Origin: Escherichia phage 4A7
Strand: one strand, 5' to 3'
DNA: 49,168 nt
Sequence record: NC_049946.1
How positions within the stretch are numbered: position 1 is the first letter of the stretch; every line of letters starts with the position of its first letter. The position numbers were made by a program, and so were the translations under genes. Below the pieces are notes generated by a model. That model searched no databases. It had not been told where the DNA came from and worked only from the letters and a program-made list of their open reading frames with translations. Below are positions 2,352 to 20,793 of this stretch, one piece after another.

Positions 2352-2541
2352 ACTGCAGGCGCTGCGTCAGGCGCGCCTTGATTTATTAACCGGTAAACGG
2401 GTGGTGTCTGTCCAGAAAGATGGTCGCAGAATTGAATATACGGCGGCTTCTCTGGATGAGCTTAACCGGGCGATCAATGATGCGGAGTCGGTACTGGGGA
2501 CAACCCGGTGTCGCCGTCGTCCGCTGGGAGTGAGGTTATGA
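2335..2541 (+). CDS. W: head-tail joining / DNA stabilisation protein gpW
   Basis: 68 aa, matches lambda gpW as recalled (LTGKRVVSVQKDGRRIEYTAAS); the position after A is conserved. Confidence 0.85.
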   Translation: MVTVAELQALRQARLDLLTGKRVVSVQKDGRRIEYTAASLDELNRAINDAESVLGTTRCRRRPLGVRL

Positions 2542-4130
2542 AACGAACGCCTGTCCTGATTGATGTGAACGGCGTTCCGCTTCGTGAGAGTCTCAGCTAC
2601 AACGGGGGCGGTGCAGGATTTGGCGGGCAAATGGCTGAGTGGTTGCCACCGGCGCAGAGTGCCGATGCGGCCCTGCTGCCCGCGTTGCGTCTGGGGAATG
2701 CCCGGGCAGATGATCTGGTGCGCAATAACGGAATAGCGGCTAATGCGGTGGCTCTGCATAAGGATCACATTGTCGGGCATATGTTTCTGATCAGCTACCG
2801 TCCGAACTGGCGCTGGCTGGGGATGCGGGAGACCGCAGCAAAAAGCTTTGTCGATGAGGTGGAGGCGGCCTGGTCGGAATACGCCGAAGGGATGTTTGGC
2901 GAGATCGACGTGGAAGGAAAACGCACGTTCACGGAATTTATCCGTGAAGGTGTGGGCGTTCATGCGTTTAACGGCGAAATCTTTGTGCAGCCGGTCTGGG
3001 ATACGGAAACCACGCAGTTATTCCGTACGCGTTTTAAAGCCGTGAGTCCGAAACGGGTGGACACGCCTGGACACGGTATGGGGAACCCTTTTCTGCGGGC
3101 CGGTGTGGAGGTCGATCGATATGGCCGTGCCGTCGCGTACCATATCTGTGAGGATGATTTTCCGTTCTCTGGTAGTGGACGATGGGAACGGATCCCGCGT
3201 GAACTTCCCACCGGGCGTCCGGCCATGTTGCATATTTTCGAGCCGGTGGAGGACGGGCAGACCCGTGGGGCTAATCAGTTTTACAGCGTCATGGAACGGC
3301 TGAAGATGCTCGATTCCCTGCAGGCAACACAGCTTCAGTCGGCCATAGTGAAGGCGATGTATGCAGCGACGATTGAAAGTGAACTTGATACCGAAAAGGC
3401 CTTTGAATATATCGCCGGCGCGCCACAGGAGCAGAAGGATAATCCGCTTATTAATATTCTGGAGAAGTTTTCCAGCTGGTATGACACGAATAACGTGACA
3501 CTGGGCGGTGTCAAAATTCCGCACCTTTTCCCTGGTGATGATCTGAAACTACAGACTGCGCAGGATTCAGACAATGGATTTTCTGCGCTTGAACAGGCGC
3601 TGCTGCGGTATATCGCCGCCGGTCTTGGCGTTTCCTACGAACAGTTGTCCCGTGATTACTCGAAGGTCAGTTACTCAAGTGCCCGCGCCTCCGCCAATGA
3701 GTCGTGGCGCTATTTTATGGGGCGGCGAAAATTTATTGCGGCCCGGCTGGCCACGCAGATGTTTTCCTGCTGGCTGGAAGAGGCACTTCTTCGGGGGATT
3801 ATTCGTCCGCCACGGGCACGTTTTGATTTTTATCAGGCGCGATCAGCCTGGTCACGGGCAGAGTGGATTGGTGCCGGAAGAATGGCCATTGACGGGCTCA
3901 AGGAAGTCCAGGAATCAGTGATGCGCATTGAGGCCGGACTGAGCACGTATGAGAAAGAGCTGGCGCTGATGGGCGAGGATTATCAGGACATTTTCCGCCA
4001 GCAGGTCAGGGAATCTGCTGAGCGGCAAAAAGCCGGACTCTCACGTCCGGTGTGGATAGCGCAGGCGTATCAGCAGCAGATAGCGGAGAGTCGTAGGCCG
4101 GAAGAGGAGACAACACCACGTGAGACGTAA
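2538..4130 (+). CDS. B: portal protein gpB
   Basis: Matches lambda gpB as recalled (ARADDLVRNNG, HAFNGEIFVQPVWDTE, FEPVEDGQTRGANQFYSVME, LLRYIAAGLGVSYEQLSR). ATG at 2538 overlaps the W stop (ATGA) and follows a GAGG RBS. Confidence 0.9.
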   Translation: MKRTPVLIDVNGVPLRESLSYNGGGAGFGGQMAEWLPPAQSADAALLPALRLGNARADDLVRNNGIAANAVALHKDHIVGHMFLISYRPNWRWLGMRETAAKSFVDEVEAAWSEYAEGMFGEIDVEGKRTFTEFIREGVGVHAFNGEIFVQPVWDTETTQLFRTRFKAVSPKRVDTPGHGMGNPFLRAGVEVDRYGRAVAYHICEDDFPFSGSGRWERIPRELPTGRPAMLHIFEPVEDGQTRGANQFYSVMERLKMLDSLQATQLQSAIVKAMYAATIESELDTEKAFEYIAGAPQEQKDNPLINILEKFSSWYDTNNVTLGGVKIPHLFPGDDLKLQTAQDSDNGFSALEQALLRYIAAGLGVSYEQLSRDYSKVSYSSARASANESWRYFMGRRKFIAARLATQMFSCWLEEALLRGIIRPPRARFDFYQARSAWSRAEWIGAGRMAIDGLKEVQESVMRIEAGLSTYEKELALMGEDYQDIFRQQVRESAERQKAGLSRPVWIAQAYQQQIAESRRPEEETTPRET

Positions 4131-5625
4131 TCTTTCACACATTATTGCCGCAGCATTCAATGAACCGCTGCTTCTGGAGCCCGCCTATGCGCGGGTTTTC
4201 TTTTGCGCGCTCGGGCGCGAGATGGGGGCAGCAAGTCTTTCGGTACCACAACAGCAGGTACAGTTTGATGCTCTCGGAATGCTGGCTGAAACGGACGAGT
4301 ACATGGCCGGAGGTAAACGACCGGCCCGTGTTTACAGGGTGGTGAACGGTATTGCTGTACTGCCGGTGACCGGCACGCTGGTGCACCGGCTGGGTGGTAT
4401 GCGGCCATTTTCCGGAATGACAGGCTATGACGGTATTGTCGCCTGTCTTCAGCAGGCAATGGCGGATAGCCAGGTGCGGGGCGTACTGCTGGACATTGAC
4501 AGTCCGGGCGGGCAGGCCGCCGGCGCGTTTGACTGCGCTGACATGATTTACCGCCTCCGTCAGCAGAAGCCGGTCTGGGCACTGTGCAATGACACGGCCT
4601 GTTCTGCAGCCATGCTGCTGGCGTCGGCCTGCTCCCGACGGCTGGTTACCCAGACATCCCGTATCGGTTCCATTGGCGTGATGATGAGCCATGTCAGCTA
4701 TGCCGGTCATCTGGCGCAGGCCGGTGTGGATATCACGCTGATTTACTCAGGGGCGCACAAGGTGGATGGCAATCAGTTTGAAGCGTTGCCGGCAGAGGTT
4801 CGCCAGGACATGCAGCAGCGGATTGATGCGGCGCGCCGGATGTTTGCCGAAAAAGTGGCGATGTTTACCGGTCTGTCTGTTGATGCAGTCACAGGAACAG
4901 AGGCCGCTGTTTTTGAAGGTCAGTCCGGCATTGAGGCCGGGCTGGCGGATGAATTAATCAATGCGTCGGATGCCATCAGTGTGATGGCCACGGCGCTGAA
5001 CAGTAATGTCAGAGGAGGCACTATGCCGCAATTAACTGCAACGGAAGCCGCCGCGCAGGAGAACCAGCGAGTGATGGGGATCCTGACATGCCAGGAAGCG
5101 AAAGGACGTGAACAGCTTGCCACGATGCTGGCAGGACAACAGGGCATGAGCGTTGAACAGGCCCGGGCGATTCTGGCCGCGGCGGCACCGCAGCAGCCGG
5201 TGGCATCCACGCAGAGTGAAGCCGATCGCATTATGGCGTGTGAAGAAGCGAACGGTCGTGAACAACTGGCGGCAACGCTGGCGGCGATGCCGGAGATGAC
5301 GGTGGAAAAAGCCCGCCCGATCCTGGCTGCTTCACCGCAGGCGGATGCCGGACCATCACTCCGTGATCAGATCATGGCACTGGATGAGGCAAAAGGGGCT
5401 GAGGTGCAGGCTGAACAGCTGGCTGCCTGCCCGGGAATGACTGTGGAGTGCGCCCGGGCTGTGCTGGCTGCGGGATCAGGTAAGGCAGAACCGGTCTCTG
5501 CATCCACAACCGCCATGTTTGAACATTTCATGGCGAACCATTCACCGGCAGCGGTACAGGGTGGCGTGCCACAGACGTCAGCAGACGGTGATGCGGACGT
5601 GAAAATGCTCATGGCCATGCCATGA
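4120..5625 (+). CDS. C: prohead protease / scaffold gpC (S49 ClpP-like) with an expanded C-terminal scaffold-like repeat region; a nested Nu3-like in-frame product is likely
   Basis: N-terminal two-thirds resemble lambda gpC as recalled (AFNEPLLLEPAYARVFFCAL, SPGGQAAGAFDCADMI, TSRIGSIGVMMSH). GTG start at 4120 follows a GAGGAGA RBS. The C-terminus carries three tandem ~35-aa repeats. Confidence 0.85.
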   Translation: MRRNLSHIIAAAFNEPLLLEPAYARVFFCALGREMGAASLSVPQQQVQFDALGMLAETDEYMAGGKRPARVYRVVNGIAVLPVTGTLVHRLGGMRPFSGMTGYDGIVACLQQAMADSQVRGVLLDIDSPGGQAAGAFDCADMIYRLRQQKPVWALCNDTACSAAMLLASACSRRLVTQTSRIGSIGVMMSHVSYAGHLAQAGVDITLIYSGAHKVDGNQFEALPAEVRQDMQQRIDAARRMFAEKVAMFTGLSVDAVTGTEAAVFEGQSGIEAGLADELINASDAISVMATALNSNVRGGTMPQLTATEAAAQENQRVMGILTCQEAKGREQLATMLAGQQGMSVEQARAILAAAAPQQPVASTQSEADRIMACEEANGREQLAATLAAMPEMTVEKARPILAASPQADAGPSLRDQIMALDEAKGAEVQAEQLAACPGMTVECARAVLAAGSGKAEPVSASTTAMFEHFMANHSPAAVQGGVPQTSADGDADVKMLMAMP

Positions 5626-5661: not shown

Positions 5662-6009
5662 ATGGTGACGAAAACCATCACTGAACAGCGTGCGGAAGTA
5701 CGTATTTTTGCCGGTAATGATCCGGCTCATACCGCCACAGGCAGCAGCGGGATTTCTTCTGCAACACCGGCTCTGACGCCCCTGATGCTGGATGAAGCCA
5801 CCGGGAAACTGGTGGTCTGGGACGGACAGAAAGCCGGTAGTGCGGTTGGCATACTGGTACTGCCGCTTGAAGGCACAGAGACGGCGCTGACGTATTACAA
5901 GTCGGGAACCTTTGCGACGGAGGCAATCCACTGGCCTGAAAGTGTGGATGAACACAAAAAGGCCAACGCCTTTGCTGGCAGTGCCCTGAGTCACGCGGCG
6001 CTGCCGTAA
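5662..6009 (+). CDS. D: head decoration protein gpD
   Basis: 115 aa, matches lambda gpD as recalled (DPAHTATG, TPLMLD, VWDGQ, AVGILV, YYKSGTF, AFAG). AGGAGG-like RBS upstream. Confidence 0.85.
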   Translation: MVTKTITEQRAEVRIFAGNDPAHTATGSSGISSATPALTPLMLDEATGKLVVWDGQKAGSAVGILVLPLEGTETALTYYKSGTFATEAIHWPESVDEHKKANAFAGSALSHAALP

Positions 6010-6066
6010 CACGTTATCAGGCCACCGCGCTGGCCTGACTGATTTCTGAATGAAAGGAACTGATTT

Positions 6067-7095
6067 ATGGGATTGTTTACGACCCGCCAGTTACTCGGTT
6101 ATACCGAACAAAAAGTTAAATTTCGTGCGCTGTTTCTGGAACTGTTTTTCCGCCGTACGGTGAATTTCCATACCGAAGAGGTGATGCTGGACAAAATTAC
6201 CGGAAAAACGCCGGTGGCGGCCTATGTCTCCCCGGTTGTTGAAGGAAAAGTGCTGCGTCATCGTGGTGGTGAAACCCGCGTGTTGCGTCCGGGCTACGTC
6301 AAGCCGAAACACGAATTTAATTACCAGCAGGCGGTTGAGCGCCTTCCTGGGGAAGATCCATCTCAACTGAATGATCCGGCTTACCGCCGTCTGCGTATCA
6401 TTACCGATAACCTCAAACAGGAAGAGCACGCGATTGTCCAGGTGGAAGAAATGCAGGCGGTAAATGCTGTGTTGTATGGCAAATACACCATGGAAGGAGA
6501 CCAGTTCGAGAAAATTGAGGTCGATTTTGGCAGGTCGACGAAGAATAACATCACTCAGGGTAGTGGTAAGGAGTGGTCAAAACAGGATCGTGACACGTTC
6601 GATCCTACACATGATATTGACCTCTACTGCGACCAGGCCAGCGGTCTTGTGAATATTGCCATTATGGACGGTACCGTCTGGCGTCTTCTGAATGGTTTTA
6701 AGCTGTTCCGCGAAAAACTGGATACCCGTCGCGGTTCAAATTCTCAACTCGAAACGGCAGTGAAAGATCTGGGCGCAGTGGTGTCCTTCAAGGGGTATTA
6801 CGGCGATCTGGCCATTGTGGTGGCGAAAATGTCTTATATAGCAGAAGACGGTATCGAAAAACGTTATCTTCCAGATGGCATGCTGGTTCTGGGGAATACT
6901 GCTGCAGATGGGATCCGTTGTTACGGTGCCATTCAGGATGCTCAGGCGTTGTCCGAAGGTGTGGTGGCCTCTTCCCGTTATCCGAAACACTGGCTGACGG
7001 TAGGGGATCCCGCCCGTGAATTTACCATGACGCAGTCCGCGCCGCTGATGGTGTTGCCGGACCCGGATGAGTTTGTGGTGGTACAGGTGAAATAA
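6067..7095 (+). CDS. E: major capsid protein gpE
   Basis: 342 aa, colinear with lambda gpE as recalled (TPGYVKPKHE, DPAYRRLRII, VEEMQAVNAVLYGKYTMEGD, KLDTRRGSNSQLETAVKDLG, TVGDPAREFTMTQSAPLM). Confidence 0.9.
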   Translation: MGLFTTRQLLGYTEQKVKFRALFLELFFRRTVNFHTEEVMLDKITGKTPVAAYVSPVVEGKVLRHRGGETRVLRPGYVKPKHEFNYQQAVERLPGEDPSQLNDPAYRRLRIITDNLKQEEHAIVQVEEMQAVNAVLYGKYTMEGDQFEKIEVDFGRSTKNNITQGSGKEWSKQDRDTFDPTHDIDLYCDQASGLVNIAIMDGTVWRLLNGFKLFREKLDTRRGSNSQLETAVKDLGAVVSFKGYYGDLAIVVAKMSYIAEDGIEKRYLPDGMLVLGNTAADGIRCYGAIQDAQALSEGVVASSRYPKHWLTVGDPAREFTMTQSAPLMVLPDPDEFVVVQVK

Positions 7096-18864: not shown

Positions 18865-20793
18865 ATGGCAGTACAGATTTCAGGCGTGCTGAAAGACGGT
18901 GCAGGAAAACCGATACAGAACTGCACCATTCAGCTCAAAGCAAAACGTAACAGCACCACGGTTGTGGTGAACACGGTGGCCTCAGAAAATCCGGATGAAG
19001 CCGGACGTTACAGCATGGATGTCGAGTATGGCCAGTACAGCGTTATCCTGCTGGTTGAAGGTTTTCCGCCTTCACATGCCGGGACCATCACCGTGTATGA
19101 GGATTCTAAGCCGGGGACGCTGAATGATTTTCTGGGGGCCATGACGGAAGAGGATGTCATGCCGGAGGCATTGCGTCGTTTTGAGGTAATGGTGGAGGAT
19201 GTGGCACGCAACGCTGAAGCCGCCTCTCAGAGCGCAGCGGCAGCAAAGAAATCAGAAACAGCAGCGGCATCGTCCAGGAACGCGGCGAAAACATCAGAGA
19301 CGAATGCAGGTAACAGCGCGAAAGCGGCAGCTTCTTCAAAAACAGCCGCACAAAACGCAGCAACAGCGGCAGAACGTTCAGAGACAAATGCCCGTGCGTC
19401 AGAAGAAGCCTCCGCAGACAGTGAAGAGGCTTCCCGCCGTAATGCAGAGTCAGCCGCTGAAAATGCCGGAGTCGCCACCACAAAAGCGCGGGAGGCTGCA
19501 GCAGACGCAACAAAGGCCGGGCAGAAAAAGGATGAGGCTCTGTCGGCAGCGACACGAGCTGAAAAGGCGGCAGACCGCGCAGAAGCCGCAGCGGAAGTGA
19601 CTGCAGAGCCCTATGCGAATATAGTGCCGCCGCTGCCTGATGTGTGGATACCGTTTAACGATTCACTGGATATGATTGCGGGTTTTTCTCCGGGCTATAA
19701 AAAAATAGCTATTGGTGACGATGTGGTTCAGGTCGCCAGTGATAAACAGGTTAATTTCAGTCGCGCATCAACGGCAACATATATCAACAAATCTGGCGAA
19801 CTGAAAACGGCGGAAATTAATGAGCCGCGATTTGAGTGTGATGGCCTGCTTATTGAGGGACAAAGAACGAACTACATGCTCAATTCGGAAAGTCCAGCCA
19901 GCTGGGGGAAGTCATCAAACATGGATGTGCCCGAAACTGGGACGGATAGTTTTGGTTTTACTTATGGAAAGTTTGTCTGCAACGATTCTCTGGTTGGGCA
20001 AACTTCGGCTATTAATATGGCATCAATTGCTGCAACAAAGTCAGTTGATGTCTCAGGCGATAACAAGTACGTGACAACCTCATGCCGTTTTAAAACAGAA
20101 CGACAGGTAAGGTTACGTATACGGTTTGATAAGTATGATGGTAGTGCAACAACTTTTCTTGGCGATGCGTACATTGATACGCAAACGCTTGAAATTAATA
20201 TGACAGGTGGTGCTGCCGGCAGAATTACGGCACGAGTCAGGAAGGATAAGACCACGGGCTGGATTTTTGCAGAGGCAACGATTCAGGCAATTGATGGTGA
20301 GTTAAAAATAGGCTCTCAGATACAGTATTCTCCTGAGCAGGGTGGGGCAACAGTATCTGGTGACTATATTTATCTTGCCACCCCACAAGTAGAGAATGGG
20401 CCGTGTGTATCATCATTTATTATTTCAGGAGGCAGCGCAACGACAAGAGCCAGTGATTTGGTTAGTATCCCCACCAGAAATAATCTTTATAAGTTACCAT
20501 TTACTTTTTTACTTGAGATTCATAAAAACTGGGATATTGCACCAAACGCCGCACCCCGCGTGTGGGATATAGCAGCCAATACCGGGCAATCAGCAATTGC
20601 AGCAATCAACAGAGGTAGTGGTAAGTTATATATGAGTCTGTCAAACCCTTCAGGCTCGTATGTTAATAGCGCAGCGACAGATGTATTTGCAGAGAAAACC
20701 ACATTTGGATGTATTGCAAAAGCTGATGGTCACTTTCATGTGGTGACAAATGGTAAAGCGGTTAATGAAGTTTATTGTGAATATAATGGGTAA
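18865..20793 (+). pseudogene. stf: side tail fibre gene stf, 3'-truncated by the IS66-family insertion (the stop codon is supplied by the IS end)
   Basis: N-terminus matches lambda Stf as recalled (MAVQISGVLKDGAGKPIQNCTIQLKAKRNSTTVVVNTV...GRYSMDVEYGQYSVIL), then an Ala-rich repeat region. The reading frame resumes after the IS at 23322. Confidence 0.8.

Follow-up and report, generated by a model that had tools for sequence, protein, structure and literature searches.

The head gene region of Escherichia phage 4A7 (NC_049946.1; the whole stretch of 49,168 nucleotides [nt], one strand, is called the window) contains an open reading frame (ORF) of 501 amino acids (aa) that, judged by its sequence, is an S49 prohead protease of the lambda gpC/Nu3 type with a scaffold gene nested in it. 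Here we describe a unit of ~36 residues that occurs three times in the C-terminal segment common to both products. A first-pass annotation had placed three such related units within positions 5074 to 5478. Translation of the DNA returned its three peptides verbatim, and a hidden Markov model (HMM) of the unit and sequence shuffling confirmed them.

Three related units and their age

The unit HMM found exactly three full-length copies in the 501-aa protein (Table 1), joined by short Pro/Ala/Gln-rich linkers. The BLOSUM62 local scores of the pairwise comparisons among the three segments were 101, 81, and 93, against ~25 ± 5 for composition-preserving shuffles (z = 11 to 15), and 0 of 2000 shuffles reached the observed values. 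Two single-copy PHROG scaffold profiles, phrog_8399 and phrog_8940, each matched the protein in at least three separate stretches, and positions I1, A7, G9, R10, E11, A14, L17, A18, M23, A28, and L32 of the unit were invariant or nearly so across units and phages. A repeat arising as a compositional artefact of an Ala-rich, low-complexity tail would fit the richness of the segment in Ala, Gln, and Glu and the lack of a tandem repeat at the DNA level, but its probability is vanishingly small: it is refuted by the shuffles, by the invariant positions, and by the recognition of the unit in more than 1000 protein clusters.

Tandem Repeats Finder detected no tandem repeat in the DNA, and a DNA repeat search returned just 12-nt seeds with a spacing of 150 or 153 nt; a recent duplication was rejected on these grounds. 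The units of the window share 58 to 65% nt identity among themselves and 36 to 42% at third codon positions, and the triplication is therefore, on sequence criteria, an old, protein-level repeat. Three units also occur, in matching order, in the prohead protease STM2605 of Salmonella phage Gifsy-1 (a lambda gpC homologue of 498 aa), and every one of them is most similar to the window unit at the corresponding place (72% for unit 1, 81% for unit 2, and 61% for unit 3). Since orthologous units of the 21-type and Gifsy-1 proteins (61 to 81% identical) are closer than paralogous pairs (44 to 58%), the triplication predates the split between these E. coli and Salmonella phages. Gifsy-1 differs from the window by its shorter linkers, by an identity of 54% over the Nu3-like region, and by a capsid protein that is 84% identical. 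The ratio of nonsynonymous to synonymous substitution rates (dN/dS) between the window and Gifsy-1 was 0.13 over the three units and 0.11 over the protease core, values that are approximate as dS is near saturation, and all three copies appear to be maintained by purifying selection similar in strength to that acting on the core.

The assignment of the gene to a prohead protease/scaffold protein, also made in the first-pass annotation, was borne out by a Pfam scan, in which PF01343 (Peptidase_S49) matched with E = 1.5e-34 and 119.6 bits against a cut-off of 24.9, and by its identity to genes 5/6 of phage 21 (see below). The profile phrog_53 (head maturation protease) matched the whole protein (E = 4.5e-228). 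A sequence search of the PDB with the whole protein returned SppA alone, for the protease domain (crystal structures 3rst and 4kwb, E ~1e-16), and no structure of a lambda-type protease/scaffold protein. Ser and Lys are the catalytic residues of S49 peptidases, and the putative catalytic pair of the window protein was nearly invariant in 61 relatives (S163 and K215 in the numbering of sequence P0094). The putative internal start of the nested gene, read from the sequence, is an ATG located 4 nt downstream of GGAGG, and the resulting 200-aa protein shares 98% aa identity with phage 21 gp6.

Table 1. Features of the protease/scaffold gene of phage 4A7
Feature	Position in window	Strand	Position in 501-aa protein	Basis or remark
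501-aa ORF, gene 5 homologue, prohead protease/scaffold fusion (lambda gpC type)	4120..5625	+		ORF list, Pfam, PHROG, phage 21 identity
Peptidase S49 domain			aa 146-293	PF01343
Putative catalytic residues			Ser162 and Lys214	Aligned with lambda Ser166 and Lys218
Putative Shine-Dalgarno sequence of nested scaffold gene, AGAGGAGG	5011..5018	+		Read from sequence; ribosome-binding site annotated equivalently in both phage 21 records
Nested in-frame gene 6 homologue, predicted 200-aa Nu3-like scaffolding protein	5023..5625	+		C-terminus common with gene 5
Unit 1 (Tri1 box), ILTCQEAKGREQLATMLAGQQGMSVEQARAILAAAA	5080..5187	+	aa 321-356	Unit HMM, 68.6 bits
Linker 1, 14 aa, PQQPVASTQSEADR	5188..5229	+		Low-confidence prediction, poor conservation
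Unit 2 (Tri box), IMACEEANGREQLAATLAAMPEMTVEKARPILAASP	5230..5337	+	aa 371-406	Unit HMM, 71.1 bits
Linker 2, 11 aa, QADAGPSLRDQ	5338..5370	+		Between HMM matches; non-helical in model
Unit 3 (Tri3 box), IMALDEAKGAEVQAEQLAACPGMTVECARAVLAAGS	5371..5478	+	aa 418-453	Unit HMM, 65.1 bits
Helix-hairpin-helix-like LAxxPGMTVExARxILAA	5131-5187, 5281-5337, 5422-5478			Second half of each unit
Non-repeated C-terminal tail, 48 aa + stop, F-x-x-F-M and L-M-x-M-P motifs	5479..5625	+		Alignment of relatives

The tail that follows unit 3 is a candidate capsid-targeting peptide: its motifs F-x-x-F-M and L-(L/M)-M-x-(M/I)-P are kept across E. coli and Salmonella relatives in the alignment, and lambda has possible counterparts (ALDRLMQG… and DLLNTPV). 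The gene order around the units is a portal-like ORF (2508-4130), the protease/scaffold gene (4120-5625), a decoration ORF of 115 aa (5662-6009), and a major capsid ORF of 342 aa (6067-7095), the start of the 501-aa ORF overlapping the end of the portal-like ORF. Near-identical loci have the same order under the Pfam labels Phage_portal_2, Peptidase_S49, HDPD, and Phage_cap_E.

Phage 21, lambda, and earlier annotation

The 501-aa gene is 99.1% identical at the nt level to genes 5/6 of phage 21 and 100% identical to its counterpart in phages 3W, 1W, and Lambda_4C10, to which the remainder of the window is also 100% identical. The phage 21 gene 5 product is also named head-tail preconnector gp5, and the gene 6 product scaffold gp6. 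The window and phage 21 have the same gene, the same putative nested start, and the boxes described below at matching positions. Their gp5 proteins differ at 6 of 501 aa (L52P, F249Y, A373V, V429A, C444S, and P484A), with three of the six substitutions falling within units 2 and 3; the phage of the window is distinct from phage 21 but has a phage 21-type head module. As a separate observation, the annotation of 3W, 1W, and Lambda_4C10 that corresponds to positions 20000 to 44000 of the window lists three "mobile element protein" genes, an alpha/beta hydrolase gene, and a YbcK-like (serine recombinase) gene.

The GenBank record M81255.1 ("Bacteriophage 21 head gene operon"), which we take to date from the early 1990s, annotates gene 5 and a nested gene 6 with its own ribosome-binding site. 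Three repeat_region features lie within gene 6; the record names them "Tri1 box", "Tri box", and "Tri3 box" and comments "function unknown; putative". Mapped onto the window, the boxes lie at 5090-5193 (Tri1), 5230-5340 (Tri), and 5371-5484 (Tri3), and by this alignment the three units are the Tri boxes of phage 21. The triplication is thus already known and annotated and has no novelty as a feature. The newer phage 21 record, OL657228.1, also annotates the nested start, and its product names are "capsid protease/scaffolding protein" and "scaffolding protein". A paper by Smith and Feiss (Gene, 1993) is said to describe the phage 21 head genes; we used the GenBank record as evidence instead. 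These repeats were not the subject of any paper found in our literature search on phage 21, Nu3, and Tri boxes. OL657228.1 also annotates CII-binding-site motifs (TTGYN6TTGY) in gene 6; this candidate was rejected, with 8 motifs in the window against 10.9 expected by chance, and the two matches at 5028-5041 and 5262-5275, both on the - strand, are probably due to chance.

Lambda gpC (NC_001416; an S49 protease of 439 aa with a nested gpNu3 of 201 aa) has one module, at aa 364 to 399, and the single-copy lambda sequence given for comparison in the first-pass annotation is present verbatim in this protein. The two systems are alike in the S49 domain, in the positions of the catalytic Ser and Lys (putative in the window), in the in-frame nested scaffold gene (predicted in the window), in the place of the gene between the portal and decoration genes, and in a tail, of ~40 aa in lambda, after the module. 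The match to the lambda Nu3 region covers ~39% of the query with 58% identity. The N-terminal flank of the lambda module resembles that of unit 1, and its C-terminal flank resembles the sequence after unit 3. The comparison of unit numbers called for by the first-pass annotation gave one unit in lambda, N15, phi80, and HK225, where the matches span one unit only, three in phage 21 and Gifsy-1, and 2, 2.5, 3, or 4 in close E. coli relatives. Unit number thus differs between lambda and its relatives, and the observation is not refuted by this comparison.

Distribution and copy-number variants of the module

The repeat unit has no model in Pfam or NCBIfam. We searched a 36-position profile of it against 1.84 billion representatives clustered at 50% identity and obtained 1041 matches at E <= 1e-3, of which the best 150 were used for unit counts. 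Among these 150, 61 proteins were full-length (>=380 aa), and 60 of the 61 are Peptidase_S49 proteins. Exactly one unit was present in 59 of the 61, followed by a tail of ~50 aa (median 51); three units were found just in the phage 21/Gifsy-type representative, and two units in one other protein. Among the best 150 matches were many proteins of 120 to 170 aa with one unit each; these may be Nu3-like scaffolds that were called as genes of their own. Independent two-unit duplications were seen in a few distant proteins (P0138, P0100, P0110, and P0121). In phage S49 protease/scaffold proteins, a single module ~50 residues from the C-terminus was thus shown to be ancestral and also much more frequent than any other state.

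In E. coli, the gene was present in 2032 of 5426 complete genomes, with 3254 gene copies in all. We counted the intact form with a query for the U1-U2 segment (the linker between units 1 and 2 and the interior of unit 2). At least 80% of this segment was covered in 1814 of the 5426, so that about one complete E. coli genome in three has the intact form, which is therefore very common. Junction-specific DNA counts for the shorter alleles (482, 451, and 452 aa) were unusable, as half-matches from three-unit genes get joined.

We surveyed copy-number variants in the 120 best clusters (90% identity) related to the full protein. Besides the 501-aa form of the window with three units, we found a 482-aa form with two units and a truncated unit 2, the product of a 19-aa in-frame deletion. 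This form accounts for 66 of the 120 clusters, and the exact protein occurs in 3592 collection-index blocks. The two-unit forms are 451 or 452 aa long and show no fewer than three kinds of junction, among them a U1/U2 chimera at GREQLA and one in which unit 2 is cleanly lost, and a 551-aa form has four units with a U3/U2 chimera. Four units also occur in a more divergent E. coli lineage, where the last three are 81 to 92% mutually identical. The junctions of the variants lie at short identical stretches common to the units, inside or between them, as expected for unequal recombination; as judged from the DNA alignment, the 2-, 2.5-, and 4-unit alleles were thereby shown to arise by in-frame unequal recombination between copies.

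The 482-, 451-, and 551-aa alleles occur in complete head modules whose adjoining capsid protein is 99.1 to 99.4% identical to that of the window. Unit number thus varies beside a capsid protein of >99% identity and is therefore uncoupled from the capsid protein type. The 452-aa, two-unit allele of E. coli O157:H7 CP038421.1 lies in two prophages (loci L005 and L006) that are degraded by a deletion running from the capsid protein gene to the tail-tube gene; at locus positions 5801-6789 of these prophages, what remains of the major capsid gene encodes 88 aa and adjoins the tail-tube gene. In the 551-aa allele (LS992828.1, locus L010, ~5290-5440), the duplicated GGAATGAC-N-G junction has an ambiguous base (N) at matching places in its two copies, and the extra unit may be an assembly uncertainty, not a real allele. 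All 17 phage-collection records covering at least 80% of the gene align as one piece of ungapped length, 16 of them covering it fully at ~1500 to 1506 nt, and there is therefore no unit-sized deletion among them.

Four further E. coli forms are likely prophage rearrangements or misassemblies. In P0316 (721 aa) and in P0322 and P0324 (577 aa), the protease/scaffold protein is fused right after unit 3 (…AAGSG) to unrelated sequence, one partner being Gly/His/Thr-rich and the other long and uncharacterised. In P0237 (657 aa), a block of 156 aa comprising the end of the protease domain and units 1 and 2 is repeated, giving five units.

Predicted structure and possible roles of the module

An AlphaFold2 (AF2) model of the 200-aa Nu3-like protein, built with a 19-sequence alignment, resembles beads on a string, in which each unit forms three short helices with a predicted local distance difference test score (pLDDT) of ~80. 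The linkers have pLDDT values from below 50 to 66, the tail is of low confidence, and the orientation of one unit to another is arbitrary in this model. Linker 1 falls below 50 at Nu3 residues 58 to 63 and is variable and gapped in the alignment of relatives. Modeled alone with its flanks, unit 2 reached a pLDDT of 89.2 and a predicted template modeling (TM) score of 0.64, with helices at residues 2-8, 16-23, and 30-39. Each unit is thus a confidently predicted three-helix module. In BFVD, the single-unit model found its three best matches in S49 prohead proteases, where they fall on the same module; these proteins come from Salmonella phage 37, Synechococcus virus S-ESS1, and a metagenomic siphovirus (TM score 0.84 to 0.89, root mean square deviation 1.1 to 1.3 Å, probability 0.92 to 1.0).

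Foldseek searches of the PDB returned nothing below E = 1 for the 200-aa model and nothing significant for the single-unit model. The P22 gp8 scaffold has a C-terminal helix-turn-helix domain that binds the coat protein. The module may be compared with this type of domain in that both would be small helical parts of a flexible scaffold, situated close to its C-terminus and contacting the shell. It differs in its internal position, in being repeated, and in the 48 aa of tail that come after it, and neither a scaffold protein nor a P22-type domain was among the PDB matches of the unit (sequence profile and Foldseek).

In lambda, C and Nu3 overlap in frame (Shaw and Murialdo 1980, as cited in PMC8508860), gpC is described as the procapsid protease (Medina et al. 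2010, as cited in PMC10695390), and Medina et al. 2011 (cited in PMC11922011) refer to Nu3 in their title as an intrinsically disordered catalyst of assembly. Nu3-Nu3, Nu3-C, and Nu3-E interactions have been reported (PMC3224144). The best overall explanation of our data is probably that an ancient, triplicated three-helix module, the Tri boxes, lies in the segment common to the gp5 protease and the nested gp6 scaffold. We propose that the module would act as the folded contact element of an otherwise flexible scaffold and would make scaffold-scaffold and/or scaffold-capsid protein contacts. The protease would co-assemble with the scaffold inside the procapsid through their common C-terminus, since it carries the same one, and three copies would multiply or extend the contacts, with the capsid type unchanged. 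That the unit is a scaffold interaction motif, as the first-pass annotation called it, can reasonably be inferred.

Several points weigh against this proposal. The link between the module and a partner is one that we infer, the GenBank note reads "function unknown", and the lambda Nu3-E and Nu3-Nu3 interactions were not mapped to the module (PMC3224144). Capsid binding could instead reside in the tail, and the modules could have another role. The dN/dS values are only approximate, for the reason given above. Alleles without unit 2 or with a truncated one are frequent, as exemplified by the 482-aa protein and its 3592 index blocks, and three intact copies are thus not strictly required, unless those prophages are defective.

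These alleles also bear on the somewhat unlikely, though possible, reading that the extra copies are redundant: unequal recombination in an Ala-rich segment prone to repeats would generate them, and copy number would drift between 1 and 4 with no effect on assembly. The wide spread of the truncated unit 2 form, the occurrence of 2-, 2.5-, and 4-unit alleles in intact head modules with a nearly constant capsid protein, and the independent two-unit duplications in distant lineages are consistent with such drift. However, all three units date from before the phage 21/Gifsy-1 split and have persisted in both lines, and the purifying selection on all three, with a dN/dS similar to that of the catalytic domain, argues against pure redundancy. 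The 17 phage-collection records hold no unit-sized deletion, 1814 of the 2032 gene-carrying E. coli genomes have U1-U2 intact, at least one short allele sits in a clearly degraded prophage, and one 4-unit allele has ambiguous junction bases. Constancy of the capsid protein beside a varying unit number argues, in turn, against tight coupling to capsid geometry. The first-pass annotation suggested that the expansion could alter the stoichiometry of procapsid assembly. On this reading, which is quite unlikely, each unit would bind the capsid protein on its own, a single scaffold chain would hold three capsid subunits, and the scaffold:capsid ratio of the procapsid would differ from that of lambda. 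Three separately folded, confidently predicted modules on flexible linkers are the geometry expected for multivalent binding, and a Nu3-E interaction exists in lambda (PMC3224144); yet the capsid protein has the same length as lambda gpE (342 aa), is 61% identical to it over the part compared, and stays constant while unit number varies.

It is very improbable that the second half of the unit is a helix-hairpin-helix (HhH) and that the array binds nucleic acid, or a protein via an HhH-like fold as in the NusA AR domains. The unit profile did pick the C-terminal HhH (AR) repeats of NusA among PDB sequences (E = 0.76 to 0.9), Pfam HHH (PF00633) matched unit 3 with E = 0.066, and RuvA was among the Foldseek matches of both models (E = 6.7 to 9.6). 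All these signals are nevertheless sub-threshold: with 13.5 bits, unit 3 stays below the Pfam cut-off of 24, PF00633 did not match units 1 and 2, and the Foldseek probability of RuvA is at most 0.09. In addition, the second hairpin glycine is replaced by Thr or Ser. Since the lambda scaffold is degraded before DNA packaging, there is no evident reason for it to bind DNA.

The triplication has little weight as a discovery, being annotated in the phage 21 record and carried by roughly one in three complete E. coli genomes. Its value is modest: the Tri box is one instance of a conserved, confidently predicted three-helix module that occurs once in nearly all phage S49 protease/scaffold proteins. 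What we add is the single-copy ubiquity of the module, the confident three-helix prediction, and its natural copy-number polymorphism; this polymorphism and the wide single-copy distribution in S49 prohead proteases are apparently undescribed in the searchable literature. The natural alleles with 1, 2, 2.5, 3, and 4 copies offer a ready-made series to test the only conserved folded element of the lambda-type scaffold. We tentatively suggest, while holding it unlikely, that the module is a valency-tunable contact element whose 1 to 4 copies tune the rate or fidelity of procapsid assembly or the amount of protease packaged. If this were true, copy number would be a simple natural "dial" on scaffold function.

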